NCBI GenBank assembly: GCA_050050135.1
Contig: JASFUW010000003.1
Coordinates: 1-34,464 of the forward strand
DNA length: 34,464 nucleotides
DNA from: Phycisphaerae bacterium
GTDB lineage: Bacteria > Planctomycetota > Phycisphaerae > UBA1845
Direction: 5' to 3'
This document shows positions 2,360-25,543 of the stretch, in pieces; the first letter of the stretch is position 1, and each line of letters begins with the position of its first letter. Below the pieces are notes generated by a model. It saw only the letters and a program-made list of their open reading frames with translations, had not been told where the DNA came from and made no database searches. Both the position numbers and the translations under genes were made by a program.

Positions 2360-3586
2360 CTACCGCGGTTCAAACTTCCTGCCGAGCGTTACGGCAAGGG
2401 TCGTGCGCCGGCGGTCTCGCCACAGCTCGATGTTCACCTCGGTGCCGGGCTCGGTCTGGGCGAGGAGAGACGATAACTGTTCGATGGATTCGACGCGGAC
2501 ATCGTCGACGGCGAGGATGATGTCTCCGGACTCGAGGCCGGCGCGGTCGGCGGCGGTGTTTCGGAGAATGTCGGTGACCAGCGCCCCGGTTCGTTCCTTC
2601 CAACCGAGCTGGACGGCTTCGGTGCGCCAATGGGGTGAGGCTACCGTTCCGGCGTAGATGCCGAGGAATCCCGGGCCACCGGTGATCAAATCGTCGACCA
2701 GAACGAGCGCGCGTGAAGAGGGTATGGCGAAACCGACGCCGTCGTATTCGCTCCCGCCGGTGGCCATGGCGGTGTTCACGCCGATGACCTGGCCGTTCAT
2801 GTCGATGAGCGGTCCGCCGCTGTTTCCGGTGGTTATGACCGCGTCGGTCTGCAGGAGCCCCATGTAAATGCGATCGCCGACCGCCAGGTATCCGCGATCG
2901 GTGGCGCTGATGATGCCTTTGGTGACGGTCCCTTCCAGTCCGAACGGGTTTCCGACTGCCAACACGTCGTCACCGACCTGAACGCCTGTGCTGTCCGCGA
3001 GGGTCAGGGCGTGGAGGCGCGACAGCGGGATTCGGATGACGGCCAGGTCGGTGTCATGATCCGCGCCGAGGACGTCGGCGTTGGTTTCGCGGCCGTCGGC
3101 GAGGGTGACCTTGATCTGGCGTGCGCCGTCGACGACGTGGGCGTTGGTGAGGATGTGACCGTGGTCGGCGTCGAAGATGAAACCGCTGCCGAGCCCGGTC
3201 TGGACGAACGGATTATCGCGATCGGTGCGGTCGCTGTCTGGGTCCTCTCGGGTGCCGGTCGCATCTTCGTCCTGAAGGGTGCGGTCCGGACGCGCGGCGT
3301 CCTTCGGCATGGTGCCGGTGTGGTTGGAAGCGCGGGCGATCGGAGCGGTGAACTCGGTTTCGATGCTCACGACGGCGGGCGCGGCAAGCGAGACCGCACG
3401 GCGCGTGGACATGACCGGAGCGAGTTCATCGGAGGCAGGCCTTGCGTCTTTGATGGCGCGGAGCCGACCCTTCTCCACCTCGTACGAAATGCGCTCGACC
3501 ACGCCGAATTCGAACAGACAGATGACGGTAAGGATGGTGGCCAAGAACGCGGCCGTGAACAGCTTCAAGTTCGGGCGTTTGCTCAT
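2360..3586 (-). CDS. HtrA/DegP-family serine protease with N-terminal TM anchor and one PDZ domain
   Basis: GLGSGFI, TNAHVV (His), DLAVI (Asp), GNSGGPL (Ser), C-terminal PDZ (AADRAGLESGDIILAVD). Confidence 0.95.
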   Translation of the reverse strand: MSKRPNLKLFTAAFLATILTVICLFEFGVVERISYEVEKGRLRAIKDARPASDELAPVMSTRRAVSLAAPAVVSIETEFTAPIARASNHTGTMPKDAARPDRTLQDEDATGTREDPDSDRTDRDNPFVQTGLGSGFIFDADHGHILTNAHVVDGARQIKVTLADGRETNADVLGADHDTDLAVIRIPLSRLHALTLADSTGVQVGDDVLAVGNPFGLEGTVTKGIISATDRGYLAVGDRIYMGLLQTDAVITTGNSGGPLIDMNGQVIGVNTAMATGGSEYDGVGFAIPSSRALVLVDDLITGGPGFLGIYAGTVASPHWRTEAVQLGWKERTGALVTDILRNTAADRAGLESGDIILAVDDVRVESIEQLSSLLAQTEPGTEVNIELWRDRRRTTLAVTLGRKFEPR

Positions 3587-4548: not shown

Positions 4549-7500
4549 CTAGTCTATGGGGACGGCGGCTTTCGCGTTGCCGTCGGTTTGCACGATCTTC
4601 GGGCCGTACACCGGACGGCTGGTGGTTGTGGTCGGTTTCGGTCGGGAGATGACCGGTCCGTAGCTCTTGGGTGTGGGGCCGTAGAGCCTGCGCTCCTCCC
4701 GGTCCGGCGTCGAGGTCGGGTCGATCGCGCCGGGCGCTCGGCCGTTGCGGTCAACGGGGCCCATGCCCTGCTCTTCCGCGGTGATCCGGAGCCCTTCCAT
4801 GAGCGCGCTGCTGCGGATGGAGTCGGGGAGCACGAACTTGTCGCGCTGCTCGATCGACATGTGGCGGGCGTCCTGGTCGGTGCGGAGGATGTCGACGGTC
4901 ATGACGATAAGAAGCTCTGTCTTCTGCTCCGAGATGCCGGTGGCGCGGAACAGATGCCCGATCAGCGGAATATCCCCGATCAAGGGGACCTTGTTGTGCC
5001 CCTCGGAATGACGCGAGGTGATCAGCCCGCCGATGACCACGGTCTCGCCGTCGCGAAGGGTGACGTTGGTCTGGACCTCGCTGGTGTTGAACACGGGCTG
5101 CGACACGCCCTCTGTGATCTGGAAGTTCTCTCCGCCGAAGCTGGATATTTCCTGGGACATTTCGACGGTGACGTAGCCGTCGGGGCTGATGTGGGGGGTG
5201 GCGGTGAGCACGATGCCGACGTCCTCTCGGCCGATGACGGTGTTGGTCGAACCGGACTCGGTGACCTGGGAACTTTCGACGAAGGGGATCTCGTCGGCGA
5301 TGGTGATGTTGCCCTCTTCGCCGTTGCGGACGAGGAGGATGGGTCGTGAAAGGACCTCGAGCCGACTTTCACCCTGGAGGGCGTTGACCAGGAACGAGAA
5401 ATCCTCGCCGGCGATGGAGAAGCTGAAGCCGAGGCCACTGCCGACGCCGAAGCCGGTGCCGCCGACGAAGTCGAAGTCGGCGCCTTGGACGAGACCGTTC
5501 GGCCCGACGATGGCGTTTTCGGAGAATCGGAGGTCTTGTCCGGCGAGCTCGACGCCGAGGTCGAAGTCGTCCTGAAGCCTGACCTCGGCGATGAGCACGG
5601 AGATCATGACCTGGGGCTCGGGGCGGTCGAGTTCCTGGATCATGGCCATCGTATCGAGGTAGCTTTGCCTGGAGGTTCCGATGATCAGGCTGCGGCCGCC
5701 CTGCTCTTCGCTGCCGACGGCTTCGACCGATATCTGGCGTTCCATGCGGCGGAGCCTGGCCTCCTGGTCGTCGATTTCGCCGAGGACGTCCTGCTCCTGC
5801 TGGTTGAAGCCCTGGATCGCACTGGCGATCTGATCGGGCTCCATGTACTTAGTCTGCATGACCTGGACGACGCGGTCTTCGGCTTCCTGCGAGTCGAGGT
5901 AACGGACGAGTTCCTCGACCATTCGGAGGTCGACCTCGGCGCCGGCGGCGATGAGGGTGTTGGTTCGTGTGTCGGCGGCGAAGCGGAGGTCCTGGCCTAC
6001 GCTGGAGACCTCGAACTCACCGATGGTATCGCCGAAGACGAGTTGGCTTTTTGCTTCGCCGTCGGCGGTTTCGGCCTCGAAGAGCTCGGTCAGTTGGTCG
6101 ACCATCGACTCGGAGTCGCTGTTGATGAGGGGGAAGAGTCGGATTTCCGAGCGTATGGGTCTGATGGTGTCGAAGTCTCGAATCATGGACTCCAACATGG
6201 CCATGCTGTCCACCGGAGCCATGACCATGAGGGAATTCGTTCGGGGATCTGCTTCGACGGTGATGTCCTGGCGGAGGAGCTTTCGGAGTGTCTCACTGCC
6301 GTCATCCGACTTTTCGATGAAGGAGACGATGACGGCGCGCTCATCGTCGTTGCCCGCCTCCTCGCCGACGACGGTGCGGCGGAGGAGGTCGGCGAAGTCT
6401 TCTGCAAGGGCCTGTTTGAGCTGGACGACCTTGACCATCGTTTCGACCGCGGGGGTGGCTGTGTCGAGTCGGGCGATGACCTGCTCGATGTTCTCCATCT
6501 GAGACGGCGCCGCCCAGACTACGATGGAGTTGGTTCGCTCATCGGCCTCGGTGGCGATGGCGTCGGCGCGTCCGCCTCCCGAGTCCGCTTGCGACTGGAA
6601 AACGCTTTCCAGCTTCTCGGCGACGGAGTTGGCTTTCGCCCGCTGGAGGGGGAAGATCTGGAACTGGCGGGCGATGCTGGAGGGTCTGTCGAGGAGGCTG
6701 AGCAGCTCGGTGATGGCTTCGTGATCGTCGCGGGAGGCGCTGGATACGAGACTGTTGGAGGCTTCGTCGGCGAGGATCACGATGGGTGTGCGGGTGATCT
6801 CGCTGCCCTCGTCACGGGAGTCGAAGAGCTCCTGCATGCGTTCGGCAAGCTGGACCGCAGAGGCGTACTCGAGTGGATAGACCTTGAAGATGGCGGTCAT
6901 GGGACCGACCTTGACGTCGAGGCGCTGAACGAGCCCGGCGGTGCGTTCGAGGGCGTCGCGTGAGCCGGCGACGACGAGTGCATTGCTTCTGGGGTCGGGC
7001 ATGATGGTTGGGGCGGTGAAGGACTCGGAGTCGCCCGCCATGCCCTGGAACAGCTCGTCGAGCATGTCCGCGAGGACGGCGGCGTCGGCGTATTCCAGCT
7101 TGTAGAGCGAGGTGTCCTCGATGACCGGCTGGGACTCGAGGGTGCGGACCAGCTCCTTGATCTCCTCGTAGTCCTCGATGCTGGACGCGATGATGAGGGC
7201 GTTGCTGCGGTCGTCGACGACGACGACGGGGGTGTCTTCGAGGAGTTCCTCTTCGGCGCGCAACTGGGCCTTACGTTCCCAGAGTTCTTCGATCTTCTGC
7301 TTGATGTCGTTAGCGGAGAGGCGTTCGCACCTTACGATGCGAATCTGGTCGAAGAGCTTGGCCGGTTTGGTGTCGAGCTGCCTGGCGAGTCGGAGCACGT
7401 CCTGGTGGTTCTCCTCGGAGGCCGAGAGGATGAGCGAGTTTGTGCGGAGGTCGACACTGAGGAAGATTCGCTCGCGTTCGAGGGCTGCGCGGCCGGCGTC

Positions 7501-9069
7501 GGTGGCTTCAAGGGCTTCCAAACGCTGATCAAAGAGGTCCTGGATGATCTTTGCGACCTTGCTGGCGTCGGTGAATTCGAGCTCGATGAAACGCAGGGGG
7601 AACTTCAAAGCGGTGGCCGGTCGGTCGAGCTCGGCGACGACGGTGTCGACGAGTCGCAACTGTTCCTCGCGACCGGAGACGATGAGGGTGTTGGTTCTGA
7701 TGTCGGTGGAGACGCCGATCTTGTAGGCGAAGGCCTTTCCGACCGGACCATCGGGGACGGACTCTGCGCCGCTGCCGTCGGGGTCTTCGGGGAGTTCCTT
7801 GCCCTTGTCGAACATCTCGTCGATGGTCTCACCGACGGATTCGGCGTCTGCGAATCTAAGTGCGAAGAACCTGACATGGGCGTCTTCGCCGAGGGGCACG
7901 CCGTCCATGAGGCGGATCAACTCGGTCATCGGTCCGACGTTGGCTTCGACGGTGGCGATGATGAGGCTGTTGGTGCCTTCGTCGGCGAGGATGCGGGTCG
8001 GTCGTTCGAGATCGATGGCGGGCAGGTCGATGATCTCACCGGTGGTGGGGTCTGCTTTGCTGATCTGGAGGCGGGAAATGGCCTCTTCGGCTTCTTCACG
8101 ACCGGTATCGGATTTAAGCAGTTCCTCGATGACATCGGCCATCTCGTTGGCTTTGGAGTGGAGAAGCGGGAACAAGACGAGCTTGACCTCGCCCCAACCC
8201 TTGACGGGCTCGACGTCGATTTCGTTCAGCAGGGCCTGGATCTTCTCGCGCTCGGTCTCAGGGGCAAGGACCATAATGCTGTTGTTGGCGTCGTTGGGGA
8301 TGATCTGGAACTCGCCCTTGGCGCCGGTGGCGCCCTGCTTCTCGCGGAGCTTGGTGATGATCTCGGTCAGCTCTTCGGCGACCACGGACGCCCGGCGGTT
8401 CTTGACCGGGAAGACAAGCTGCTCGGGCTCGGGCAGCTCGTCCTTCAGCTCGTCCACCCTGTGGATGACGTCGATGATGAACTCGAGTTCGTTGGGCAGG
8501 GCGGAGACGAGCAGGACGTTGGACGACAGGGCGGTGACGGAGAGTTCGAGCTCCGGTCTGCGGTTGGGCTCGAAGAAGACATCTTTGAGCGGTTGCTCGA
8601 TGGCGCGGGCGATGTCGTTGGCGTCCTTCTCGGTGACGGTGACGACGCGCAGCTCCTTCTTTTCCGTGGTCTTGTCGAGCAAGGCGACCAGCAGCTCAAC
8701 GATCTGGATGTCCTGGGGTTGACCGTAGACGATGATCTGATCACCGACGACCTCGTAGTCGAGTTCGGCGCCGGTGAACGTGATCAGCGAGGGATCGATG
8801 TTCTTGAGGGCCTCCTGAACCGTATCCACTCGGGACTCAGTGCGTGCGCGGGCGGCTTCCTCCGGCGTTACGCCCGGCGGCAACTTCTTGGGCGCGGGTT
8901 GTTTCGGTTGTGCCGCTTGCCTGCGTTTGGCCGGTTGGGTGGGCTTGTCCGGTTGCACATCCTGGGCGACCGCCGCATTCGGGAAGGCGATCAGTGCCAA
9001 CGTCAGTGCACTGCAAACCCACCACGGCCTCGCTACCCGCCGCTGTCGACACCATTCATTTGTCCGCAT
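4549..9069 (-). CDS. gspD: Long GspD-family secretin (~1506 aa): signal peptide, half repeat plus ~12 NolW-like N-repeats, C-terminal secretin domain
   Basis: Start ATG 9069 after AGAGGA; signal peptide ...LALIAFPNAAVA|QD. Repeats follow L-x-Y/F-A-D-A...D-x-R-T-N-S-L-I-V...L-D. Secretin core motifs PQVMISVLIAEV, VLSRP, DVGIVLTATPHI, DGETVVIGGLI, KVPLIGDIPLIGHLFR, TELLIVMT (~4885-5620). Confidence 0.93.
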   Translation of the reverse strand: MRTNEWCRQRRVARPWWVCSALTLALIAFPNAAVAQDVQPDKPTQPAKRRQAAQPKQPAPKKLPPGVTPEEAARARTESRVDTVQEALKNIDPSLITFTGAELDYEVVGDQIIVYGQPQDIQIVELLVALLDKTTEKKELRVVTVTEKDANDIARAIEQPLKDVFFEPNRRPELELSVTALSSNVLLVSALPNELEFIIDVIHRVDELKDELPEPEQLVFPVKNRRASVVAEELTEIITKLREKQGATGAKGEFQIIPNDANNSIMVLAPETEREKIQALLNEIDVEPVKGWGEVKLVLFPLLHSKANEMADVIEELLKSDTGREEAEEAISRLQISKADPTTGEIIDLPAIDLERPTRILADEGTNSLIIATVEANVGPMTELIRLMDGVPLGEDAHVRFFALRFADAESVGETIDEMFDKGKELPEDPDGSGAESVPDGPVGKAFAYKIGVSTDIRTNTLIVSGREEQLRLVDTVVAELDRPATALKFPLRFIELEFTDASKVAKIIQDLFDQRLEALEATDAGRAALERERIFLSVDLRTNSLILSASEENHQDVLRLARQLDTKPAKLFDQIRIVRCERLSANDIKQKIEELWERKAQLRAEEELLEDTPVVVVDDRSNALIIASSIEDYEEIKELVRTLESQPVIEDTSLYKLEYADAAVLADMLDELFQGMAGDSESFTAPTIMPDPRSNALVVAGSRDALERTAGLVQRLDVKVGPMTAIFKVYPLEYASAVQLAERMQELFDSRDEGSEITRTPIVILADEASNSLVSSASRDDHEAITELLSLLDRPSSIARQFQIFPLQRAKANSVAEKLESVFQSQADSGGGRADAIATEADERTNSIVVWAAPSQMENIEQVIARLDTATPAVETMVKVVQLKQALAEDFADLLRRTVVGEEAGNDDERAVIVSFIEKSDDGSETLRKLLRQDITVEADPRTNSLMVMAPVDSMAMLESMIRDFDTIRPIRSEIRLFPLINSDSESMVDQLTELFEAETADGEAKSQLVFGDTIGEFEVSSVGQDLRFAADTRTNTLIAAGAEVDLRMVEELVRYLDSQEAEDRVVQVMQTKYMEPDQIASAIQGFNQQEQDVLGEIDDQEARLRRMERQISVEAVGSEEQGGRSLIIGTSRQSYLDTMAMIQELDRPEPQVMISVLIAEVRLQDDFDLGVELAGQDLRFSENAIVGPNGLVQGADFDFVGGTGFGVGSGLGFSFSIAGEDFSFLVNALQGESRLEVLSRPILLVRNGEEGNITIADEIPFVESSQVTESGSTNTVIGREDVGIVLTATPHISPDGYVTVEMSQEISSFGGENFQITEGVSQPVFNTSEVQTNVTLRDGETVVIGGLITSRHSEGHNKVPLIGDIPLIGHLFRATGISEQKTELLIVMTVDILRTDQDARHMSIEQRDKFVLPDSIRSSALMEGLRITAEEQGMGPVDRNGRAPGAIDPTSTPDREERRLYGPTPKSYGPVISRPKPTTTTSRPVYGPKIVQTDGNAKAAVPID

Positions 9070-9087
9070 GATGGTTTCCTCTGTAAA

Positions 9088-9119
9088 GCCGGGTCTTCCA
9101 TACCGGCCGGGTCTTTCCA
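9088..9119. repeat. Imperfect tandem direct repeat upstream of the secretin RBS
   Basis: GCCGGGTCTTCCA (9088-9100) and GCCGGGTCTTTCCA (9106-9119). Confidence 0.6.
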
Positions 9120-9201
9120 CTCGCGTTCCTTTCGGCTGCCTTCCCCTTGGCGGTACGTTCACGCGTCCCGGATTCACGAATGCCGGGCTTGCCCACGTTT
9201 G

Positions 9202-12200
9202 TCACGGCCGGCGTCCCCTTCCGCTTGAAGCCGGTCGACGACGGCTGCTGGACGAACTCTTGCGCGTGGTGGAGGACGCGCCTTCGCCGCGCAGGCGCTC
9301 GATCAAGCTGGTGAGTTCGTCTGCCGGGACCGTATCGATCGTGATCACGGCCATGCTTCGCCCGCTCATGGGGCCCATTTCTTCCATTTCTCGAGCCAGC
9401 TTCTCCGCATCGTCGAACAGCTCCGGAGAGCCCGCGAAGACCAGAGAGATCGTCCGACGATCCGGCGTCACGGTTATGCTCGGTACGTCACGACGCCCCT
9501 TACCTGAGGTGGCACGTGCGGAAGCACCGTTATTGATCACACTCTCGACGGTCTCGGCCATCTCGGTGACGTTGACACCGGGGGCCAACTGGACGATTCG
9601 GAAGTTGGTACCGCCGGCAGCCTCTTCGGTGTCGAGTTTTTCAACCAGGGACTGGATGGCGCTCAAATCCGCCCGGCCGGCGCTGACGATCAGGTTCTTC
9701 TGGGACTCGTCGGCTGTGATGACGGGGGTTCTCTGCCCTTTCATGGTTCGGCCCTTGGCCTCGACGATCGCCTCCTGCAAAGTGGGTAGTATCTGCCCCG
9801 CAGTTACGTGCTTGAGCGGGATGAGCTGTGGTTCCGTCTGGTCCTTGGCAGCTTCATCGAGCTTGTGAATCTGCTCTTCCAAGTCGTTCACGCGTTCGAG
9901 GCTTCCGCTGACGAGCATCGCGTTACTGCTCGCGAGCGGAGCGAGCTTGATGTTTCCGACCAGCTCCTTGCCTCGCCCTGAAGGCTTTTGTAGTGCCTGC
10001 TCCATGGCACGTTGCATTTCGGTCGCATCACCGTAGAGCAGGGTGACCACGCGGACCTCTTCGGCGCCGGCGGCGGCCTCGCTGTCCAGTTCCTTGATCG
10101 CCGCGTCGATGTCGGCGAAGTCCTGCTCGTTGCACTTGACGAGAAGGGCCTTGGACCCCCCTACCGCCGAGATCGAGATCGGCTGGGGGCCGCCGCGCGG
10201 TCGGGCGGCGGAGCGGATGAAGACCTCCGTCAGCGTGCGTGACATCGACTCGGCATCGGCGTTTTCCAGCGTGACGACGTGAACTTGTTCCTCCGCGCTG
10301 GTCTCGCTATCGAATTCCTCCAGAAAGGCTTCGATGCGCTTCAGGTTGGCGGGTGACGCAGAGACCACGACGGACGAAGTTTCGTGATCGCCGATAGCGG
10401 CGACCTGGTCGCGGGGGCTGCGGCCGCCGCGGAACAACCTGGTGATGGCTTCCTGGGCGATGTAGGGATCGGCGTTATTCAAGTGGAAGCTCTTTACCTG
10501 TTGCATGCCGGTCAGGTCAGGCTCGACGTCGAGCGATTCGATCAACACGGTCAGCTCGAGCATTTCGTCGCGGGTGGCCGAGATCAGGAGGGAGTTCGAG
10601 GCGACATCCGGGGTTATTTGAACGGCTTGTTCGCCGCGGCGCGTGGGTCTTTGTCCGCGATAGACCTGTTGCAGAGCCCGGGCGGTCTCGTCGGCGCTTG
10701 CGTGTTGAAGCTTGTAGGTGTGGAGTTCCTTGGTCAGTGTGGACTCGACGTCCACCTTCTCGATGAAGGCCTTGATAATCGCGTGGGTCTTTGCCGGAGC
10801 GGTGACGATCACCGATTGGGTGGCCCATTCCGGGGACGAGGTCACCTGTTGTGATGGGCTCGGCTGCGAGCGGACATCCCACCGAAACATATTGAGAATG
10901 ACGCCGTTGACACTGCCGGGGTCGGCATACTGGAGGGGATAGACCTCGGTGACGCGTTCGGCCTCCAAGGGCGATTCGATGTCGATCTCGGTGAGCAGAG
11001 CCTCAATCTCGGCGAGCTCTTCGTCGTTAACGTTGGCGACGATGGAGTTGGTCTTGGCGTCTGCGACGAATGCCGGTCCCTGGTCGCCGCGTGTTCGGCG
11101 GGTCACCTGCCGGAACAATTGTGTGAACTGGTTGGCCACCTCGGCGGCCGAGGCGTGGGTAAGCCGCAGCACGTGTCGCCCGCGCTGCCTGGTGGCGACG
11201 GTCTCGTCGTCGAGCCCGTCGAGCAGGTCCTTGATGATCATGTGGTTGGATTCGGACGCGGAGACGACGACGGACTGGGTGCCCTGCTCGGCGAAAGCGG
11301 TAACGACGTCGCGTGGGGCCTGTCTGCCCTTGGTTTGCGAGCGTGATCTGGCCCACTGGTTGATGATGTTGACGACGGCGTTGGGGTCGGCGTACTTGAT
11401 GGCGTAGATCTTCATCGCTGTCGCGCTGATGGCGGCGATGTCTTCGCGGTCGAGCTCGGCGACGCGCTGCCGGACCATCTGCATGTTCGTCTCGGACGCC
11501 TGGACGACGACCTGTTTGGTGTCGGTCACCGGTGTTACGACCACGGTGTAGTCGAGGGGGGGCACGTTGGCCCCGCGCCCGAGCCCCTTCATGGCGCGGG
11601 CCTTGTCCTCGAAGATGCGGTTGAGCGATTCGGCGACCGCTTCGGGCTCGGCGAATTCGAGCGTGATGGTCTCGGTCTGGAGCTTGAGCGCTTCCTGGGC
11701 TTCGAGCGGGTCGATGACCTCGCTTTTGATCTCGTCGAGCTGGGCCTGGGTCCCGCGGACGATGAGCATGTTGAGGGAGCGGTTGGCTTCGGCGGTGGGC
11801 GGTATCTCGCCTTGTGCCAGGTTTCTGCCACTCCAGAGGCGGTTGATGTTCTGTGCCACTTCTGTGGCGTCGCCGTTTTGCAGGTGGATCATCAAGAAGC
11901 CGGGCGGGCTTTTGGCGTAGGCGGGGACGTCGACCTTTGCCAGGTTCTCTTCGATGAACCCGAACACGGCCGGTCCGCCGAGGGCGATGATGGCGTTGGC
12001 CTTGTCGTCGACCTCGACGCTGAATGCCTCGATGTTGGCACCGCGTCCCATGCGCCGCATGTAGTCTGCAATCAGCTTGGTCATCAGGGTGTGGACCTGG
12101 CGGGCGTCGGCGTATTTCAGCGGGTAGATGCGGAACTCGAAGCCGATTTCGCGCGGCTTGTCCAATGACTCGACGAGCGACTCGATCTCGGCGAACATGG

Positions 12201-15200
12201 TGTCGTCGGCCACGACGAAGAGTGTCTTGCTGGGGTCATCGCCGGTGATGGTGAACTGGGTGCCGCCCGATTGACCACCGCCCCGTCGGCCTCGGCTTCC
12301 GCCTCGTCCGCCGTACGCGGTCTGGATCGCCTCCGCGACCTCGGACGCCTGGGCGTGGAGGACGGGGATGACACGAACGGTGTCCGTAATCTCCGCCTCG
12401 GACTCCAACCGGGCGATGGTCTCGTCGATCAGGTCGCGCTGATTGCTAGGGGCGGTGAAGATCAGCATCCGGCTGCCCTCCTCGCCGATGAACACGGGGC
12501 CGGTCTCGTCGCCGGCGGTGGTGGTCCCGCGTCGCGGGCGGCCTCTGCGGCTCGGTGTGCTCCGTTTGCCGGTGAACATCTGGGTGAGGGTGTCGGCGAC
12601 GGCGCCGGCGTCGGCGTGCTTGAGGACGACGTGCTCCCACTGGCGGTCGTCCTTGACGTCGAGGCGGGCGATGATGTCGTCGATCTCCTCGAAGTCGTCT
12701 TCGAGGGCAAGGACGGTGATCATATTGAGCCGCGGGAAGGGAATGAACGTCGGCGCGGTCAGGATACCGGTCGCCCCGCTCGATGATGCATCCCTGCCGC
12801 CCCGCCGCCCACCGCGTGGTCTGGTGGGCTCGTCGCCGTAATGGGTTTCGAGGTATCCGACGACCTCATCCGCATCGGCGTGCTCAAGTTCATAGTACCT
12901 AGCCACTCGTTCGTGAACTTCGGCGGTCTCGAGCTGCTCGATGATGTTCTCGATATAGTCCAAAGCCACCCGCGGCGCGACGGCGATGATCGTGTTCGCG
13001 GTCTCGTTGCTGTGCAGGCTGATGTCCTCGGGATCGATGCCCAGCAGGTCGCCTGTCTTGGTCTCTTGCAGGATGGTCTCGGGGAGTTGACTGCCGGGGC
13101 CGGTGGTGGAGACGGTCGCCTGGGGTTGTGCGCCACGCCGCGTCCGACGGGACCGACTCACCCTTCGGGGCTGCTCGTCGAGACCGAGGATGTCCTTGAG
13201 CATTTCTTCGACTTCGGCGGCGTTGAGTTTTTCGAGACGGAAGATGCGCATTTCACTGTCGATCGGCTTGGGCCGATCGATGGTGGCGAGGAGTTCCAAC
13301 AACGCCGAGTACTGGCTGGTATCCGCGCGGAAGATCAGGGTTCGATCGCGTTCGTTGGCGTAGACCCGAACCGCGGTTTCGGGCAACTGCGGCGCGGCAG
13401 GCGTTGCGGTCGGTTGGGCACCGCGACGTCCGCGACCGGGCTGCTGGTCCTCCTGATCGTCCCGGCCTGGCTGCTGTTGACGGGCCCGTTGTTGCTGCAG
13501 TCGGGCCTGTTGTCGAGCCCGCTGGGCTGCCAAACGCTGCTGCTGGACCATCATCTGCCGCTGCTGACGCGTGGCGTTGTACATTTCATTGATGATGTCC
13601 GCGGCGGTGTTGACGTCGATATAGCGGACGCGGTACACACGGATGTCGGGCCTGGCCGTTGTCTCATCACCGAGGTCCTCATCGATCTCCGTGACCCAGT
13701 CCGGTACCTCGTCGACGACGCTGGCCTGTCCGTTGATATAGAGCACACCCTCTTCATCATCGTATTCGATGATGACCTTCTCTTCGTCCATAAGGGAGGT
13801 GGCCACATCGACCAGCTCTCGGTCGGTCTCTTCCGGCGCGTGGTGCGCGGTTTCTTCCGCCGGGTCCTGCGCGGTCTCGTCCGGTGGGTCCTGCGCGGTG
13901 ACGGTGACGGCGAGCGCGTCAACCATACGGGTGAATCCGGTTGGAAGAACGCACGGGGTCGGCTGTGGCGGAACGGCTTCCCGCGTTGTCGGTTCCGGGA
14001 TCAAGCGTGTGAGCCCGTATTCCTCCGTCGGGCCTTCGCGAAGGTTTTTGATCTGGATGTCCAATTCGGGATGCGTCGCCTGCAGTAGGTATGCCAGCTC
14101 TTTGGCAGTAAGTTTCTTCGGGACTCGAACCGTCTTCCGGATCTTCTTCATTTGATCGGGGTCAGGCTTGTCGACATACTCCCGGATGATCGCCCTGATC
14201 TCGTCGAAGCGCTCTTCATAGGGATACTTGACGACCAGGTAATCGCCCCAGAACGCCTCCTCGACCTTGGGCAGTTCCCCGGGGTAAGACCAGAGCTGCT
14301 CGATGGCCATCTCCGCGTTAAAGACCGCATCGAAGGCGTCGGTGTATCTCAGCTCGTAGGTGAAACTCGGAATGACCGGTGCGCTGGTGACCCCAAGCTC
14401 GTCCTCACTGTCGAACCGCGAGATGGTGTCCTCGATCTCGGCCATCTTCGCCGGGGTGGTGGATACGAGCAAGGTTCGGGAAATCAGGTCGGCCTGCATG
14501 TATAGCTGGTCGCCGTCCCATGTCTTGGTGGAGGCGAACTCGTCCTCTTCCTCCGGCTCGGCGCGTCTTCCGCGGCGGGTGGACGGCTTCGCTCCGGGAC
14601 GCACGATCGGGGTATCCACGGTGTGGATGATGAGCTCGCCGAGTCTGATGAGGTCGGCGTTGGCGATTTCGAATACACGGAGGGCTCGACCGGAGGTTGC
14701 GCGGGCGTCGAGGCGCTCAATCCAACCGACAACTTCGTCGACCTCGGGGCGTTCGCCTCGAAGAACGACAGCTTGACCACCGGGCGCTTCGGCGATGGTC
14801 AGGGCGGTGTACTCGTCCGCCGATCCGGCGGAAGCCTTGCCTTTCGCCCTTCGGGTCGTCGGTCGGGTGGGCGCGCCGCGCATCTCCTTGACGGCTTTTA
14901 CGACGTCGGGCGCCGTGGCGTGTTTTAGCTCGACGAGCTGGACGACGACCTCCTGGTCGTCACCGGGCAGGTCGAACTGGGCGATCAACGTCTTGGCCTC
15001 ATCGATGATGAGCTGCTCGGCGGAGATGACCACGCGACTGCTGCGGGGGTCGGCGAGGATGTGGAAACGCTCCGGCCTGTCGCCGGGTCGCCTCGCGCGT
15101 GTCTTGGATGATGTCCCCGGTGTGGCACTCGGATCAAGCGCGGGGTCCAGCTCTCCGCCGACGGCGAGTTCACGCACCTTCATGTTCAGAAGCGGCGTGA

Positions 15201-18159
15201 TCTGCTCGACGAGTTCGTCGGGATCGGCGAACTTGACCTCGATGAACTCGGTGAAGACCGGTTCGGGTGTGCTTCCGATGCTGAGGACGGCGATGTATTC
15301 GTCGATCTGATCGAAGTCCTCCGAGGGGGCGATGACGAGAAGCTGGCCGATGCCCGGCTGGGCGATGAACCGCGGCGCTTCCCCGGCGGCGGACTTTGCT
15401 CTGCCCTTCGACGATCGCGATCGCGGCGCTGCGGTGGCCATCAGCGACTTCAGCGTCTCGGCGATGTCCTCAATGTCCGCACCCGAGGGGAAGTCCTTGT
15501 AGACTTTCAGTTCGGTCCGGGAATCTTCGACGTCGAACTGCTCGATCAGGGCGGCGACGCGCTCCATTTTTTCGGGCGTGGCGCGCACGATCAGGCGGGT
15601 CCCCAACTCGACGATGGTCAGGTCGGGTGAGATGGTCGGCGAAGCGGCGGCGGCGGCTTGTGCCGCCTTTGATGATCTCCTCCGCGACGGCCTGCCCGCG
15701 TCACCGTCTGCGACGAGCGTTTCGATGAGGGTTTTGATATCACCGGGGTCGGCGTAGCGGATGTCGAACGTGCGTTCCTCGATGTTGACCGGTCGATCGA
15801 TCTCGGCGATCACGTCTTTGATCTGTTCGAGCTGGGTGGGGCTGGCGCCGGTCACGAGGACCGCTTCCTCCGACGGCATGAAACCGACGTTCCAGTCTTG
15901 CCCGGCGATCTCGAAGAAAGCGGGGAGGAGTTCGACGGCTTCGTCCGGGGTGATGTGCTGAAGAGAAAGGCGAACGAAGAGTGGTTCCTCGCTGCCAACC
16001 TCTTCGAGCGAATCGATGATGGGTTTGTACTCTTCCCACTGCTCGTTCGAGCACAACACGTAGAGCCGGCCGGCGTCGTCATCGGGGGTGAACTTGGAGG
16101 CGGTCATCGGGCGTGTACGGCGGCGGCGGGAGGTTCGGGTCTTCGGTTTCGGTGAAGGCGTTGGCGTCGCCTGCGGGGCTGATTCCTGCTCATACTCGCG
16201 GAGGATGCTGGCGACGAAGGACGGGAGCTGATAGGTCAACTCGACGACCCGCAGCTCGACCTCGGCATGGGGAACGTCGAGCTGTTTGACCCAGTTCATG
16301 ACCTGGTTGTACTTGGCGTTGCTTCCGGCGTACCACATGCGGGAGTCATCGTTGGCGTCGGGCACGAGCTGGAAGTCGGCCGGTCCCTTGCCGCGCTCGG
16401 GGTCTGAGGTGACGGTGGGGATGAAGGTTGCCAGCTCTATGGCAGACGCGTGGTTCAGGACAATCTCTATGGGGGGTGCAGACGGCTGGTCGAACTGGGT
16501 GACGTATTTGCGTATCTCGTCGATGTCTTCCTTCTCGCCGATGGCGATGATGGCGTCGGCTGAGGGGTGGGCGATCATGGTCAGCCCGCCCGCGGTCGCC
16601 GAGGTTGTGGGCGTCTGGTCCTTTGCTCCCCGTCGTCGGCGCGAGGGTCGCGCGCGGGTGGATGGGGTGGCGCCGTCTTCGGACGACGAAGCCACGAGGA
16701 TGTCCTCGATGATCTCAATCAGTTCGCCGGGGTCGGCGTGCTGGAGGGGGATCACGACGGGCTCTCCTTCGGGCTGTGGCACGTCGATGTAGGGCAGGAG
16801 CATTTTGATCTCCTGGATCTTGTCCTGCATCGCCCTGACGAGGAGGTACCCGCGGGTGTCGTTGGGCCAGAGCCCGACCTCCGGTTCGAGCATGTTGTCG
16901 AGTCGACTCTGGTCCTTTCCCCCGCCCCGGCGGGAGGCGGTGCTTCGGGTGCGTGCGCCGCCGCCGTCGATGTCCATCATTTCGGAAAGCGTGGCGAGCG
17001 CTTCGCTGGGCGCGATGTGCTCGACGGGAATGATCTCGAGCGTTCGTGGATCGTTGCTGCCGCCGACGAAGATGCGCTTGAACTCGAAGTACTTCTCGAT
17101 GTCGTCCACGAATGCGTAAATGGTGACCGCGTTGCGGTCCTCGATGGGGGTAACGCGGAGGTAGTCGGGCATGAAGTCGCGGACGATGCGCAGATCAGCG
17201 ACGGAGCCTGATTTGGGGGTATAGATGACGAGCACGAGTTCGTCGTCGGGGAGGCCGGCGGCGCGGAAATCCTCGAGCGTTCGGTACATGCGTGTGGGAG
17301 GCAGCTTGCGCAGATAGTCGTTGACCCGGACGACCTCGAGGTGCTTCTCGTGGCGGATTAGATAGTAGGGGTCGTGGGGTTTGTAGTGGCGGAGCAACAT
17401 CCGTACGCGGCTGAACGCCGCCTCGTAGGCGAGTTCCTCGTCCGTAACGAAATTGACTTTCCCGTCCTTTGGTGCCGCGCCTATGACACCCAGTCCGGTT
17501 TGTCGGGCGAACGCGGTGACCAGTTGCTCGTAGCTACCGTCGGCGATGCTGAACGAGTAGATCTTATCCTCGGGCGTGATTTCGCTTAGGGTCGGTTCGA
17601 CATCAAGCGTGGTGGTGTCACCGGATTCGCCTCTACCGGTGACGTCAGGCGGCATGTCGGTGCCCCGGTCGGGCGTCCGACCGGGCCGACTTCCCGTTGG
17701 TCTGCGGGTCGGGGTTCGCGGGTCCTGGTTGTTGCCCCTGCCCGCGGTCGGGTTCGGGCGTGTCGCTCTGCGGTAGCGTTCAGGGACGGTCGGCGTGGTC
17801 TTGGGGTCTTGTTGCGGACGTCGGGTTCCCGCCCTTTCGAGCAACTTCTCGAGATTCTTCTGCGACGCGGGACTGAGTCTGGGCTTGTTCGGACCGCCCG
17901 GTTTGGTGATGGGTGTCTTCGGTTTGTCGGCGTCGTCGTCCGATTCATCCTCGGACTCATCGTCTGGCGGCACATCGTCGTCCGGAGGGGGATCGGCCTG
18001 TTCTTCGCCCTCTTCCGGTTCCGGGTCCGGTGCGAGCGAAGGAGCGGCCACATCGGGCGCGGTTGCCTGCGATGCCGACAAGTCGGTCGTCAGAACGGGC
18101 CCCATGGCAAGCGCGAGACCGAGTAAAAGGATGGCTCTCAACACGATTTCCCGATTCAT
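9202..18159 (-). CDS. Giant secretin N-terminal-domain repeat protein (~2985 aa): signal peptide, N0-like domain, ~30 NolW-like repeats, no secretin barrel
   Basis: Start ATG 18159 (MNREIVLRAILLLGLALAMG). N0-like segment YSFSIADGSYEQLVTAFARQTG. About 30 repeats counted by eye, e.g. IPLQHADPGEL...HPSADAIIAIG...FDQP and YPLKYADARQV...DDKANAIIALG...VDVP. No PQVxI or GDIPxxGxLF motifs. Confidence 0.9.
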   Translation of the reverse strand: MNREIVLRAILLLGLALAMGPVLTTDLSASQATAPDVAAPSLAPDPEPEEGEEQADPPPDDDVPPDDESEDESDDDADKPKTPITKPGGPNKPRLSPASQKNLEKLLERAGTRRPQQDPKTTPTVPERYRRATRPNPTAGRGNNQDPRTPTRRPTGSRPGRTPDRGTDMPPDVTGRGESGDTTTLDVEPTLSEITPEDKIYSFSIADGSYEQLVTAFARQTGLGVIGAAPKDGKVNFVTDEELAYEAAFSRVRMLLRHYKPHDPYYLIRHEKHLEVVRVNDYLRKLPPTRMYRTLEDFRAAGLPDDELVLVIYTPKSGSVADLRIVRDFMPDYLRVTPIEDRNAVTIYAFVDDIEKYFEFKRIFVGGSNDPRTLEIIPVEHIAPSEALATLSEMMDIDGGGARTRSTASRRGGGKDQSRLDNMLEPEVGLWPNDTRGYLLVRAMQDKIQEIKMLLPYIDVPQPEGEPVVIPLQHADPGELIEIIEDILVASSSEDGATPSTRARPSRRRRGAKDQTPTTSATAGGLTMIAHPSADAIIAIGEKEDIDEIRKYVTQFDQPSAPPIEIVLNHASAIELATFIPTVTSDPERGKGPADFQLVPDANDDSRMWYAGSNAKYNQVMNWVKQLDVPHAEVELRVVELTYQLPSFVASILREYEQESAPQATPTPSPKPKTRTSRRRRTRPMTASKFTPDDDAGRLYVLCSNEQWEEYKPIIDSLEEVGSEEPLFVRLSLQHITPDEAVELLPAFFEIAGQDWNVGFMPSEEAVLVTGASPTQLEQIKDVIAEIDRPVNIEERTFDIRYADPGDIKTLIETLVADGDAGRPSRRRSSKAAQAAAAASPTISPDLTIVELGTRLIVRATPEKMERVAALIEQFDVEDSRTELKVYKDFPSGADIEDIAETLKSLMATAAPRSRSSKGRAKSAAGEAPRFIAQPGIGQLLVIAPSEDFDQIDEYIAVLSIGSTPEPVFTEFIEVKFADPDELVEQITPLLNMKVRELAVGGELDPALDPSATPGTSSKTRARRPGDRPERFHILADPRSSRVVISAEQLIIDEAKTLIAQFDLPGDDQEVVVQLVELKHATAPDVVKAVKEMRGAPTRPTTRRAKGKASAGSADEYTALTIAEAPGGQAVVLRGERPEVDEVVGWIERLDARATSGRALRVFEIANADLIRLGELIIHTVDTPIVRPGAKPSTRRGRRAEPEEEDEFASTKTWDGDQLYMQADLISRTLLVSTTPAKMAEIEDTISRFDSEDELGVTSAPVIPSFTYELRYTDAFDAVFNAEMAIEQLWSYPGELPKVEEAFWGDYLVVKYPYEERFDEIRAIIREYVDKPDPDQMKKIRKTVRVPKKLTAKELAYLLQATHPELDIQIKNLREGPTEEYGLTRLIPEPTTREAVPPQPTPCVLPTGFTRMVDALAVTVTAQDPPDETAQDPAEETAHHAPEETDRELVDVATSLMDEEKVIIEYDDEEGVLYINGQASVVDEVPDWVTEIDEDLGDETTARPDIRVYRVRYIDVNTAADIINEMYNATRQQRQMMVQQQRLAAQRARQQARLQQQRARQQQPGRDDQEDQQPGRGRRGAQPTATPAAPQLPETAVRVYANERDRTLIFRADTSQYSALLELLATIDRPKPIDSEMRIFRLEKLNAAEVEEMLKDILGLDEQPRRVSRSRRTRRGAQPQATVSTTGPGSQLPETILQETKTGDLLGIDPEDISLHSNETANTIIAVAPRVALDYIENIIEQLETAEVHERVARYYELEHADADEVVGYLETHYGDEPTRPRGGRRGGRDASSSGATGILTAPTFIPFPRLNMITVLALEDDFEEIDDIIARLDVKDDRQWEHVVLKHADAGAVADTLTQMFTGKRSTPSRRGRPRRGTTTAGDETGPVFIGEEGSRMLIFTAPSNQRDLIDETIARLESEAEITDTVRVIPVLHAQASEVAEAIQTAYGGRGGSRGRRGGGQSGGTQFTITGDDPSKTLFVVADDTMFAEIESLVESLDKPREIGFEFRIYPLKYADARQVHTLMTKLIADYMRRMGRGANIEAFSVEVDDKANAIIALGGPAVFGFIEENLAKVDVPAYAKSPPGFLMIHLQNGDATEVAQNINRLWSGRNLAQGEIPPTAEANRSLNMLIVRGTQAQLDEIKSEVIDPLEAQEALKLQTETITLEFAEPEAVAESLNRIFEDKARAMKGLGRGANVPPLDYTVVVTPVTDTKQVVVQASETNMQMVRQRVAELDREDIAAISATAMKIYAIKYADPNAVVNIINQWARSRSQTKGRQAPRDVVTAFAEQGTQSVVVSASESNHMIIKDLLDGLDDETVATRQRGRHVLRLTHASAAEVANQFTQLFRQVTRRTRGDQGPAFVADAKTNSIVANVNDEELAEIEALLTEIDIESPLEAERVTEVYPLQYADPGSVNGVILNMFRWDVRSQPSPSQQVTSSPEWATQSVIVTAPAKTHAIIKAFIEKVDVESTLTKELHTYKLQHASADETARALQQVYRGQRPTRRGEQAVQITPDVASNSLLISATRDEMLELTVLIESLDVEPDLTGMQQVKSFHLNNADPYIAQEAITRLFRGGRSPRDQVAAIGDHETSSVVVSASPANLKRIEAFLEEFDSETSAEEQVHVVTLENADAESMSRTLTEVFIRSAARPRGGPQPISISAVGGSKALLVKCNEQDFADIDAAIKELDSEAAAGAEEVRVVTLLYGDATEMQRAMEQALQKPSGRGKELVGNIKLAPLASSNAMLVSGSLERVNDLEEQIHKLDEAAKDQTEPQLIPLKHVTAGQILPTLQEAIVEAKGRTMKGQRTPVITADESQKNLIVSAGRADLSAIQSLVEKLDTEEAAGGTNFRIVQLAPGVNVTEMAETVESVINNGASARATSGKGRRDVPSITVTPDRRTISLVFAGSPELFDDAEKLAREMEEMGPMSGRSMAVITIDTVPADELTSLIERLRGEGASSTTRKSSSSSRRRPASSGRGRRP

Positions 18160-18261
18160 CTCGACGTCTCCGTCCTCACGCGATTTCCGCGTGGCGGTCA
18201 AATGGCACTCAGGTGGCGGCAAGAGACGGCGGCCACTCGTTGTCGCCCCTTACGGGGCATG

Positions 18262-20250
18262 CTATTCGTCCTTAGCGTCCTTGCCTTTGTCCTTTCCGTC
18301 GTCCTTGTTCTCGGTTTGCCCCTTTCCCTGTTCCTTCTCTTCCTTCTTGCCGTCTTCTTTCTTGCCCTCGTCCTTCTTGTCCGCGGTCGCCTCGTCCTTC
18401 ACCTCTTTTACCCCCTCCCCTTCAGCGGATGCACCCGGCTTTCTTCCCGGGTCGGGCTCCGGTTTCGGCGTTTTCCCCAGATTCCTGGGTTGGAACTTTC
18501 CTCGTCGCGACGAGCCCGGGGCTCTGCGGGTGTTCGGTTTCTTGACTTTTCGGTCCGTCCTGCCCGGTCTGTGTGTCCGGGTGATGGCCGGTTTCTTCGT
18601 TCCGGGCTGCGGGGTGAACTTACCCGTTCGTTTTGTGGGACCGTCGCGCTTGGCGTCGGGCGACTCCGCCGGGGCCTGCGGGGTGTTTCGTACGCCCGGC
18701 CTTCCGGACGGGGCTCCGGTCCTGGCTGTACCCGGCCGGCCGGGCACCGGCGACTTCGGGTCCCGGACGGTTGTGTCCGGCTGCTTCGCCGAAGACGGCG
18801 CCTCGGCACTGCCCGGGTTTCGCGGGGCCCCCTGCCCCGTTCGCGCGGGCGTTGATGGTGCCTTTGTTTTGTCACTTTTCTGCGCGGCTTCGGCGGCTTT
18901 CCGTTCGGCTTCGGCTGCTTCACGGGCGGCCTCTTCGGCCGCCTTCTTTTCCTCCTCGTCCTTGATCTTGTGCGCAACGGCCTTTAGCTCGGGGTATTCG
19001 TCGGCTGCGTTGTTGACCACGTTGACGGCTTCGTTGAGCCAGTGCCCGATCGGGTAGATGAAGAAGTCATCACTTCTACGCGCCAGCACGCCCGTCGGAT
19101 GCATGGCCAGCAGCTCTCCGCCGTCGAATTCCTGACCTTTGGTGTAGTACTCGGTCTGGTGGGTCCGGCGGTTGTCGATCATCGCCTCCCAGATCCGCTC
19201 CGAACCGCTTCGCGTACCCAGGACCATCACGAGCTGCATGTTCTTGGCGTACTTCCAGGGTTGGGGTTTTGGCGGCGTCGGAGGAGAAGGATCTTCTCGG
19301 TCGGGTCCGGGCGGCGGTGGCACGACGCGCTTCGGCTCGACCTTGACCCGTAGCGAGTCGGTCGCGGTCCACCCTTGACCGTCGGTGGCGGTGACCACGT
19401 ACGTTCGATCATAGGGCTCGGACACGTCGAGCTCGGTTCGACAGTCGTCGGCCTTTTCAAGACCGTCGGCGGGCTCCCACTTACAGGTGTACTGCTTGTC
19501 TCCGCCGGTGACGCGAGCCCTCAGGTTGGACTTTCTCCTCTGCGGGCTTCTGAGTTTGATGTCGCGCCCGGCGTCGACTTTGAGCGGATCATAGTCGGGC
19601 TCGGGTGTGAAGGGCGTGCCGGCCCACAAGGAGGAATAATCACGCTCCTCATGGCGTACGAAGGACTCGGGTTGGTCGAGGTCCTGCGGTTTGATCTTCC
19701 CGACCTTTTCGTGTTGTGGCGGGATGAGGATCTCGATGGGAACGCGAATGTTCATCTTGGCGGGGCCGCGCTCCTTGCGAGACCGACTCGCGGGGTAGAT
19801 GGCGGGGTTGGTGACGCGGGCCAACTGGGGCAGTTCGGACGCGTCCCGCAAGAACTCGATCGCCGCCTGCAAGGTGCCCTGACCCTTGACCGTCACGGTG
19901 AGGAAGGTGAGGTCGGTTTTTTGATCGCGCTTCGGTCGGCTCGGCACGGTGCTGGCATCTACGAGCTTGTGCTTTTCGATGAGTTTGTTGAGTCGGTCGC
20001 GGAGGTCGGTCTCGACCTTTCCGAGATCGAAGGACCCGGCGCGTCCCGCTAGAGCCTGATACTTCTTGGCCCACTGCTTGACTTCCGTCTCGACGGCTTT
20101 GAGCTCTTCGTATCGCTCGTTTTTCTCAGCGATCCGGTCGTCGATGGTGAGAAGCGGTTTGATCCATTGCGGGTAGACGACCGAGTCCACGATAAACAGA
20201 AGGACCAGGACGCCGAGGGCACCCGCCAGAATTGGTTTGAGTCTTTCCAT
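18262..20250 (-). CDS. Bitopic assembly-platform protein: GspM/PilO-like domain + Ig/PKD-like domain + GspC-HR/PilP-like domain + low-complexity tail
   Basis: N-terminal TM and coiled coil; ferredoxin-like segment LTVTVKGQGTLQAAIEFL; Ig-like VDAGRD...YTCKWEP...TYVVTATDGQG; HR-like QLVMVLG...AMIDN...YYTKGQEFDGGELLAMHPTGV; lies between the PilMN gene and the secretins. Confidence 0.7.
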   Translation of the reverse strand: MERLKPILAGALGVLVLLFIVDSVVYPQWIKPLLTIDDRIAEKNERYEELKAVETEVKQWAKKYQALAGRAGSFDLGKVETDLRDRLNKLIEKHKLVDASTVPSRPKRDQKTDLTFLTVTVKGQGTLQAAIEFLRDASELPQLARVTNPAIYPASRSRKERGPAKMNIRVPIEILIPPQHEKVGKIKPQDLDQPESFVRHEERDYSSLWAGTPFTPEPDYDPLKVDAGRDIKLRSPQRRKSNLRARVTGGDKQYTCKWEPADGLEKADDCRTELDVSEPYDRTYVVTATDGQGWTATDSLRVKVEPKRVVPPPPGPDREDPSPPTPPKPQPWKYAKNMQLVMVLGTRSGSERIWEAMIDNRRTHQTEYYTKGQEFDGGELLAMHPTGVLARRSDDFFIYPIGHWLNEAVNVVNNAADEYPELKAVAHKIKDEEEKKAAEEAAREAAEAERKAAEAAQKSDKTKAPSTPARTGQGAPRNPGSAEAPSSAKQPDTTVRDPKSPVPGRPGTARTGAPSGRPGVRNTPQAPAESPDAKRDGPTKRTGKFTPQPGTKKPAITRTHRPGRTDRKVKKPNTRRAPGSSRRGKFQPRNLGKTPKPEPDPGRKPGASAEGEGVKEVKDEATADKKDEGKKEDGKKEEKEQGKGQTENKDDGKDKGKDAKDE

Positions 20251-23612: not shown

Positions 23613-24688
23613 TCTTCCGGCATCTCCTCCTGGGCGAGTTCCTCCATGAGGCTCTGTGCCTCGCGGCTGACACGGGAACGGAAGAGCGGGTCGGCGTGGG
23701 CGGTGCGCACGGTGATCGAGTATTGATCTTCCGGGAGCGGGTCACAATCGACGGGGTCCTCGTTGAGGCAGATGCAGAACTCCTCGTTTGGCTCGTCGGG
23801 GCCGAACGCTTCGCCGAACGGCGGCATGGGCTCGAACCCGATGGTTACGCGGACGGCCTGGGGCAACGGGTTTTCGCCGACGAGGTCCCAACTGTCCCAC
23901 CAGCGGTTTCCGTCGTAGTAGCAGAACCGAAGATAGCGGATTTCGGGCGAATAGAGTTCGTCCCAACGGATGTCCAGACCGAGGCTGGCGTCGCCCGCTT
24001 GGTCCCGCTGTTCCTCGTCTCCCGAGACGGCCCATTCCATGTCACTGGCGAACTCGTCGAGGGGGGCAAAGTCCCCGCCGTATTCGTCGGCCGTCTGAGG
24101 CGATTCCTGTCCGTCGAGCGGTTCGCCTTCGTCGAGGGCTTCGGGGTCTTCGAGCGGCGGCAGCGGACGCGGGACGAGGCGCTCGATCCGCGCGAGACCG
24201 AGGGGCAACTCGTAGTTGTCTTCGTGCATGACCTCGGGATGCCGGACGATCTTGTACTCGACCTGGACCAGGTCGTACTCGGGGGGGGCGGGGGGTTCGC
24301 GTGTGGTGCGCTCGCGGCTCTGCTCGCGGGTGGGCACGCGGTAGGTGGAAATCCAGATGCGCTCCGCCTCGCCCCGCAGGCCCACGTTGTCATCCACGGT
24401 GTTGACGGTGGCCTGGCGAATCTCGGTGGCGATCCGGTCGAGAACCACGCGGATGAGGCGGAGTCGCTGGGCGGCGGACGTGCCGTATCGGGAGGTCTCG
24501 AGCGACGAGGCATAGAACCAATACGTCATCGAGGACAAAAAGACCAGGATTCCCATCGAGAGCACCACCTCCAACAAGGTGACACCTCGACGACACTGAG
24601 TTGCGACTGCGCCGGGAGTCGGCAACCGCATACGCACGGACGCCGCTGCGTCGGTCGACGGTCTCGTCGTGATCGATGACCGCCGCAT
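23609..24688 (-). CDS. gspJ: Minor pseudopilin, GspJ-like
   Basis: Class III signal RRG|VTLLEVVLSMGIL; C-terminal LRFCYYDGNRWWDSWD...LPQAVRVTI; start and stop codons overlap both neighbours. Confidence 0.85.
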   Translation of the reverse strand: MRRSSITTRPSTDAAASVRMRLPTPGAVATQCRRGVTLLEVVLSMGILVFLSSMTYWFYASSLETSRYGTSAAQRLRLIRVVLDRIATEIRQATVNTVDDNVGLRGEAERIWISTYRVPTREQSRERTTREPPAPPEYDLVQVEYKIVRHPEVMHEDNYELPLGLARIERLVPRPLPPLEDPEALDEGEPLDGQESPQTADEYGGDFAPLDEFASDMEWAVSGDEEQRDQAGDASLGLDIRWDELYSPEIRYLRFCYYDGNRWWDSWDLVGENPLPQAVRVTIGFEPMPPFGEAFGPDEPNEEFCICLNEDPVDCDPLPEDQYSITVRTAHADPLFRSRVSREAQSLMEELAQEEMPEE

Positions 24689-25497: not shown

Positions 25498-25543
25498 TTT
25501 GTCAGCTTGTCGTATCCCCGATGGCGGTCCCGCGTGGTGCAGG

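Follow-up and report, generated by a model that had tools for sequence, protein, structure and literature searches.

Solved secretins from type II secretion systems (T2SS) consist of one polypeptide with an N0 domain and three N domains, oriented with N0 toward the inner membrane and the pore in the outer membrane, and each of their rings accounts for approximately 3 nm. Here we describe two adjacent genes, designated the extender and the secretin, in a 34,464-nucleotide stretch of DNA (the window) from a Phycisphaerae bacterium (contig JASFUW010000003.1, assembly GCA_050050135.1). They resemble the GspD-type T2SS secretins ExeD, EpsD, and E. coli GspD (PDB 6i1x, 5zdh, 5wq7) in possessing a PF00263 pore, ring-forming Secretin_N domains, and a location within a gsp operon, but differ from the solved GspD secretins in that some 40 N domains are distributed over two polypeptides, with one domain cut in two. 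The two genes probably represent a single GspD-type secretin that has been cut in the alpha1-beta2 loop of one N domain, the halves of which would rejoin as one domain.

The PilQ secretin of Thermus thermophilus reportedly contains a handful of rings. It is similar to the pair described here in having extra stacked periplasmic rings, but it is described as a single chain of 757 residues (PMC5745081), is unsplit, and is not a T2SS secretin. The sole precedent that we found for the split itself is in the mitochondrial T2SS of heteroloboseans, jakobids, and malawimonads in which, according to the available sections of the report, GspD and GspDN1-3 are separate polypeptides, with GspDN2 and GspDN3 being half N domains that correspond to the N-terminal and C-terminal halves of one Secretin_N domain (PMC8134430). 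The same feature, a likeness in layout, is found here, in that each half matches the complementary half of the repeat with 94.8% probability. The mitochondrial proteins differ in being eukaryotic and small, with single or half domains and no long repeat array, and reassembly of their halves is neither proposed nor tested in those sections (PMC8134430). Full-text literature searches recovered no paper describing giant or two-gene secretins in Planctomycetota, and none describing the single-gene secretins of 4490–5073 amino acids that occur in two other families of the class (see below). Within the text retrieved, the gene-fission discussion in PMC6668835 concerns TadB and TadC and not secretins, and the mention of 'secretin' in PMC11131199 is unrelated.

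Complementary half domains at the gene junction

The two giant open reading frames (ORFs) are on the minus strand within a run of type II secretion genes identified by Pfam matches in the window. The features of the pair and of its junction are listed from upstream to downstream, with the basis of each assignment in brackets.

9202–18222, minus strand: extender gene, product of 3006 amino acids (ORF; Pfam Secretin_N; our own repeat hidden Markov model, HMM)
9379–9603, minus strand: last complete N-domain repeat of the extender, residues 2874–2948 (repeat HMM positions 1–70, 42.6 bits; aligned in alignment A1)
9292–9354, minus strand: split N domain, first half (beta1-alpha1), at extender residues 2957–2977 (HMM, hhalign, conservation)
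9205–9291, minus strand: basic C-terminal tail of the extender, 29 residues, rich in Ser, Arg, and Gly (sequence; relatives)
9070–9201, minus strand: spacer between the extender and secretin genes, in frame with both and containing no further stop
4549–9069, minus strand: secretin gene, product of 1506 amino acids, ATG at 9069 (Pfam; repeat HMM)
8962–9069, minus strand: predicted signal peptide of the secretin, residues 1–36 (read from the sequence)
8767–8961, minus strand: Pro/Lys/Gln-rich linker and poorly conserved helix (identity; predicted local distance difference test, pLDDT; alignment)
8668–8766, minus strand: split N domain, second half (beta2-beta3-alpha2), at secretin residues 102–134 (HMM, hhalign, AlphaFold2)
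8449–8652, minus strand: first complete N-domain repeat of the secretin, residues 140–207 (repeat HMM, 31 bits; AlphaFold2 pLDDT above 90)

The extender contains 23 Pfam Secretin_N stretches (E 8.7e-190), and our repeat HMM, which has 72 positions and was built solely from the window's extender and secretin, identifies 26 near-full and two partial repeats. Its layout consists of a signal peptide, a low-complexity region, a possible N0-like region, the Secretin_N-type repeats, a terminal half repeat, and the basic tail, following which the ORF ends at 9205 with a TGA stop at 9204–9202. The start codon is uncertain, and an internal Met at residue 22 precedes a hydrophobic, signal-like stretch. 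A Pfam search for the PF00263 pore domain in the extender found none, and on that ground the extender alone is not a secretin. The secretin gene encodes a half repeat, then 12 N-domain repeats by our HMM (11 Pfam Secretin_N stretches, E 3.3e-111), and then the PF00263 pore domain at residues 1230–1396 (window 4882–5382, E 1.2e-44). Its signal peptide has a basic n-region, a hydrophobic core, and an Ala-x-Ala-type end, the same element being present in relatives, and there is no room for an N0 domain ahead of the half repeat. The N domains and the pore are thus not on one polypeptide in this locus; they are encoded by two ORFs with a stop between them, the second having its own signal peptide.

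Using the window's own sequences, extender residues 2959–3004 align with positions 3–32 of the 72 in the repeat HMM (-1.2 bits, independent E-value 0.32), and secretin residues 111–133 with positions 49–71 (2.9 bits, independent E-value 0.017). Pfam Secretin_N places these same secretin residues at model positions 43–65 of 69, with an E-value of 0.041 that falls short of the curated cut-off, and it has no match in the last 56 residues of the extender. When profiles were built from relatives and compared by hhalign, the extender half matched the first half of the repeat with 94.8% probability (E 5e-8) and the second half with 68% (E 5e-5), and the secretin half matched the second half with 94.8% (E 5e-8) and the first half with 0.4%. 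Because a strand followed by a helix occurs twice in the fold, the strand-helix pattern is ambiguous without repeat phasing, and the assignment of the halves rests also on that phasing. The extender C-terminus and the secretin N-terminus thus complement each other as the two halves of a single Secretin_N-type domain.

The position of the break is the variable alpha1-beta2 loop. This loop carries at least four Arg or Lys residues in 19 of the 26 extender repeats, and the basic tail is therefore best read as a typical extender loop of which only the beginning is left. An earlier note on this DNA, made from the sequence alone, had located the two half repeats exactly, in both coordinates and sequence: the 'MAVITID...' stretch of the extender, whose ATG is at 9354–9352, and the 'ELDYEV...LDKT' stretch of the secretin, which extends from 8766 to 8668 and is directly followed by the first full repeat. 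It had also proposed that the extender ends with the first half only, that the secretin starts with the second half only, and that the break falls in the variable loop; these three points are supported.

Several other features of the repeat arrays are apparent. One extender repeat (window approximately 13270–13640, residues 1527–1651) has a 61-residue Gln/Arg-rich loop that is helical or coiled-coil-like in appearance, and extender residues 1274–1430 have no match to our repeat HMM. Asp and Glu exceed Arg and Lys in the loops of nine of the 12 secretin repeats (4552–9069), compared with one of the 26 in the extender (9205–18222); the inner-membrane-side two thirds of an assembled conduit would be basic and its outer-membrane-side third acidic.

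Conservation and origin of the split

To examine the junction in relatives, the first 206 residues of the secretin were searched in 41 related genomes, 31 of which matched, and 18 family-level loci (L002–L019) were retrieved. The extender half is present at E ≤ 1e-3 in 17 of these, the 18th (L013) ending at a contig edge, and the secretin half is present in all 18. When the junction of a fused relative served as query, 188 of 201 genomes of the order matched. Among the loci of all 49 relatives both thresholds are passed at the junction in 36, the match is weak in seven, and one of the two matches is lacking in six, counts obtained with junction HMMs derived solely from the window's own family and including L057, a duplicate of L004.

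Both halves equal the adjoining complete domains in degree of conservation. The extender half has a mean pairwise identity of 34.5%, versus 36.5% for the full domain next to it, and the secretin half one of 43.8%, versus 41.0% for its neighbour; for the linker and helix upstream of the secretin half the value is 20.6%, and the helix region is unalignable in distant relatives, with gappy columns in alignment A2. The two halves are retained across at least eight families of the order (f1–f7 and f10), and the extender and secretin genes are adjacent in every split locus examined. A conserved 'LSG' turn precedes the secretin half domain in relatives. The extender tails are Arg-rich at the end in 16 of 16 relatives (alignment A1), and in other families of the order the basic tail is only 6–15 residues long. 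Both halves are found at the same junction across the order, and the half-repeat termini are conserved in homologues, contrary to the refuting outcome that the earlier note had named.

The junction occurs in more than one state. Families f1, f3, f5, f7, and f10 have the two-gene arrangement, and families f2, f4, and f6 have a fused one, in which one open frame of 4000–5500 amino acids continues through the junction. The fused loci are as follows.

L027, L028, L032–L035, L037–L039, L042, L044, L050 (12 loci, families f2, f4, and f6): fused, with the junction near locus nucleotides 1700–2300
L061–L070 (10 loci, family f6): fused

In the fused sequences inspected, the first half repeat is followed by a basic stretch, then by a hydrophobic one and a long Pro/Thr/Gln/Ala-rich linker, and finally by the second half repeat. 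In families f2 and f4 the hydrophobic stretch is signal-peptide-like, with a nearly invariant Ala-Gln at its end (alignment A3), and in f6 it is degenerate. Mapping onto the fused ORF of genome G027 is collinear, with the extender C-terminus aligning with residues 2247–2461 (E 8e-30) and the secretin N-terminus with 2502–2736 (E 2.5e-16). In the fused ORF of genome G037 a single repeat-HMM match, interrupted by a long insertion, extends across the junction as one domain (residues 2380–2539, HMM positions 1–71, 11.1 bits). The fused forms are either secondary fusions or intermediates, and in either case the two ends are placed side by side.

A phylum-wide search with the pore domain matched 120 of 121 genomes, and among the 150 matches listed, open frames longer than 4000 amino acids are present only in genomes of the same class. 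Three of these giant secretins (L058, L059, and L060, from genomes G267, G301, and G246) are single ORFs of 4490, 4754, and 5073 amino acids with 48–50 Secretin_N-type repeats, and they belong to two other families of the class that are absent from the order-level sample. In these three genomes the N domains and the pore are on one polypeptide, whose sole signal-like hydrophobic stretch is near the N-terminus; neither a junction nor an internal hydrophobic stretch was found in any of the three. Because they are single ORFs without a junction, the domain that is split in the window is intact, or at least unbroken, in the three giants. The halves originate from a domain, intact in these three giants, that was broken or received an insertion, and the intact giants and the fused ORFs together point to a GspD-type secretin that has been split inside the variable loop of one N domain.

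Proposed joining of the halves and competing explanations

In the reading that we favour, one of approximately 40 periplasmic N domains would have been cut in its variable alpha1-beta2 loop. The extender would be the inner-membrane-proximal part of the secretin, contributing the possible N0 region and the beta1-alpha1 half together with some 28 repeats whose loops are basic; the secretin gene would contribute its own signal peptide, the beta2-beta3-alpha2 half, the pore in the outer membrane, and 12 repeats whose loops are mostly acidic. The two products would be exported separately, and because the N0-like lead is in the extender only, the extender C-terminus and the secretin N-terminus are expected to meet in the middle of the periplasm. 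There the beta1-alpha1 unit and the beta2-beta3-alpha2 unit would pack in trans as one complete N domain, and this packing, repeated around the ring with the two chains at 1:1 stoichiometry, would connect the stacked rings of the extender with those of the secretin to form one continuous and very long conduit. It is from the conservation and the origin of the halves that we infer their refolding in trans. If some 40 rings were each to occupy about 3 nm, as in solved secretins, the conduit would span of the order of 100 nm.

AlphaFold2 modelling of the secretin N-terminus alone (19-row alignment) gives a mean pLDDT of 83.9, with an upstream helix (model residues 4–24, pLDDT 57–65), a half domain composed of strands at 39–43 and 46–50 and a helix at 53–69 (pLDDT 74–86), followed by a full domain modelled with confidence. 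For the naturally fused G027 junction (12-row alignment), the model has a mean pLDDT of 64 and consists of a full domain, a strand-helix unit (pLDDT 60–69), a disordered segment at 108–206 (below 50), a strand-strand-helix unit (pLDDT 65–69), and a further full domain. The top Foldseek matches of this fused-junction model are N domains of GspD, ExeD, and EpsD (E 8e-7 to 1e-4), a result that concerns the fold only and is silent on packing. Prediction of a complex between the N-terminal 145 residues of the secretin (alignment A2) and the C-terminal 133 residues of the extender (alignment A1), run without controls, gave interface scores (interaction prediction Score from Aligned Errors, ipSAE) of 0.14 and 0.08, relative to a mark of 0.32, and these weigh neither for nor against binding.

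Several observations weigh against the joining of the halves as we propose it. In the window alone the half-repeat matches are weak, and a first hhalign comparison with the whole repeat aligned the extender half to the repeat's second half, at 7% probability; that comparison gave low probabilities (7% and 27%) and was misleading for the extender half, and it was set aside in favour of the half-versus-half comparison. None of the structural results shows the halves packed together, the AlphaFold2 output consisting of secondary structure and pLDDT only, and the halves of the G027 junction reach pLDDT values of only 60–69. The fused ORFs retain a signal-peptide-like stretch; they may have arisen by secondary fusion, or translation may begin at an internal start, and they are not proof of a single chain. 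The N0 assignment of the extender is a language-model lead only. The nearest ESM Atlas clusters to extender residues ~181–400 are GspD N0 (scores 0.93–0.91), with PF21305 in 38–92% of the members of those clusters and a family set common to 25 of 30 matches. Pfam did not find the N0 domain (PF21305) in residues 181–400 even at E ≤ 10, and a PDB sequence search with the N0-like region returned unrelated double-bond reductases.

An alternative that we regard as unlikely is that the split secretin docks end to end without rebuilding the N-domain fold, with the half repeats acting as separate contact elements. Each half might, for instance, contact an adjacent complete domain or the following subunit of the ring, or the basic tail might bind an acidic linker, with ring-on-ring avidity providing most of the hold. 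The secretin half is indeed modelled on its own as a hairpin and helix (pLDDT 74–86), yet both halves match complementary halves of the repeat and keep its hydrophobic pattern, and the domain is intact in the three giant secretins. The charge distribution is compatible with docking in that the extender loops are basic and most secretin loops acidic, the extender tails are always Arg-rich at the end, and many relatives have acidic secretin linkers; however, the linker of the window's own secretin is basic and not acidic, and the tail cannot be the main joint because it has only 6–15 residues in other families of the order.

We consider it quite improbable that the secretin half domain is completed in cis by its own upstream helix and a strand, leaving the extender half as an idle leftover. 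AlphaFold2 does place a long helix upstream of the hairpin, and a helix-like 'xRVQQxL..LDP' stretch is common to close relatives. This helix is nevertheless predicted with low pLDDT (57–65), its region has less than half the identity of the half domain (20.6% versus 43.8%) and cannot be aligned in distant relatives or in the fused forms, and the helix alone would leave the beta1 strand missing; the completion in cis that the earlier note had named as a possible objection thus loses its footing. Moreover, the extender half is conserved like a full domain, which is not expected of a leftover.

There is very little chance that the pair is made as one chain, either by readthrough of the TGA or because the stop is a sequencing error or recent nonsense mutation, such that no trans joint exists. 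Only one TGA and 44 open codons lie between the extender and the secretin, which share a frame, and fused ORFs exist in other families. But 61% of 44-codon windows on this strand are free of stops, and among 30 split loci that were classed, the genes are in different frames in 17 and in the same frame in 13, close to the one third expected by chance and with no clear excess, so the open same-frame spacer looks like chance. The secretin is also equipped with a start codon and a signal peptide of its own. We rejected readthrough and recoding of the TGA given ordinary TGA use in the window, where it terminates six of the 16 ORFs checked, and given that the relatives' genes are mostly out of frame. 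Equally slight is the prospect that the half repeats are decaying, functionless remnants of gene fission, with the extender acting independently of the secretin or attached to it through a third protein: weak as the window-only scores of the halves are, these are kept in at least eight families at the identity of complete domains, and the gene pair is adjacent in every split locus examined.

Were the halves to refold in trans, a bacterial secretion conduit would be joined by a domain common to two chains. The Lpt bridge (LptC, LptA, and the N-terminal domain of LptD) is also a periplasm-spanning conduit, built by the end-to-end docking of separate polypeptides whose domains have a like fold, but its domains are beta-jellyrolls that meet whole, edge to edge, and none is known to be common to two chains. 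In chaperone-usher donor-strand complementation and in self-cleaved SEA and GAIN domains a fold is completed by a segment of another chain, or stays intact after a chain break; these differ from the split secretin in having immunoglobulin-like (Ig-like) or SEA/GAIN folds and a single strand as the donor. The analogy with donor-strand complementation drawn in the earlier note is consequently a loose one: the working would be similar, but the donor here would be a strand-helix unit added to a beta-beta-alpha unit, and the fold is not an Ig-like pilin fold lacking its last strand but the beta-alpha-beta-beta-alpha fold of Secretin_N.

More tentatively, the split N domain may be a self-assembling, non-covalent snap joint in a conduit of about 40 rings that crosses an unusually wide periplasm, enabling two modules to be exported and oligomerised separately. 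A basic-loop module would then grow from the inner-membrane platform and an acidic-loop module would hang from the outer-membrane pore. As a part of this same tentative view, one bacterial class would hold the same domain in an intact state, in a split state, and in a fused state that encloses a relic signal peptide. The channel proteins of this lineage, with a predicted 40–50 rings, are in many families encoded by two genes cut exactly inside one ring domain. Refolding in trans would provide a way for a secretion system to bridge a very wide periplasm, and would help to make sense of the half N-domain proteins of the mitochondrial T2SS, which have lacked an explanation. A snap joint would in addition amount to an experiment by nature in fold complementation, from which an orthogonal split-domain tag might be derived.

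The type II secretion neighbourhood

The gene context typical of a GspD secretin is present upstream of the extender, with the following genes on the same strand.

20291–28433, minus strand: T2SS genes comprising GspF, GspG, minor pseudopilin candidates, GspK, and a PilM/GspL-like gene (Pfam)
27237–28433, minus strand: GspF (Pfam T2SSF, 1e-57)
26555–27073, minus strand: GspG (Pfam T2SSG, 6.8e-25)
21888–23612, minus strand: GspK (Pfam T2SSK_1st, 5.5e-13)
20291–21895, minus strand: PilM/GspL-like gene (Pfam PilM_2, 3.1e-26)

A GspJ candidate is weak, its Pfam T2SSJ match of 4.1e-4 falling short of that family's cut-off. Between the GspL-like gene and the extender is an ORF of 662 amino acids (18265–20250, minus strand) with no Pfam match which, from its place in the gene order, we presume could be a GspM- or GspC-like platform protein contacting the extender's N-terminal region. 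Approximately 1 kb downstream of the secretin is a gene for a DegP/HtrA-type protease (2363–3586, minus strand; Trypsin_2 and PDZ, E 3.5e-33), and its product may be a periplasmic quality-control partner of the secretin.

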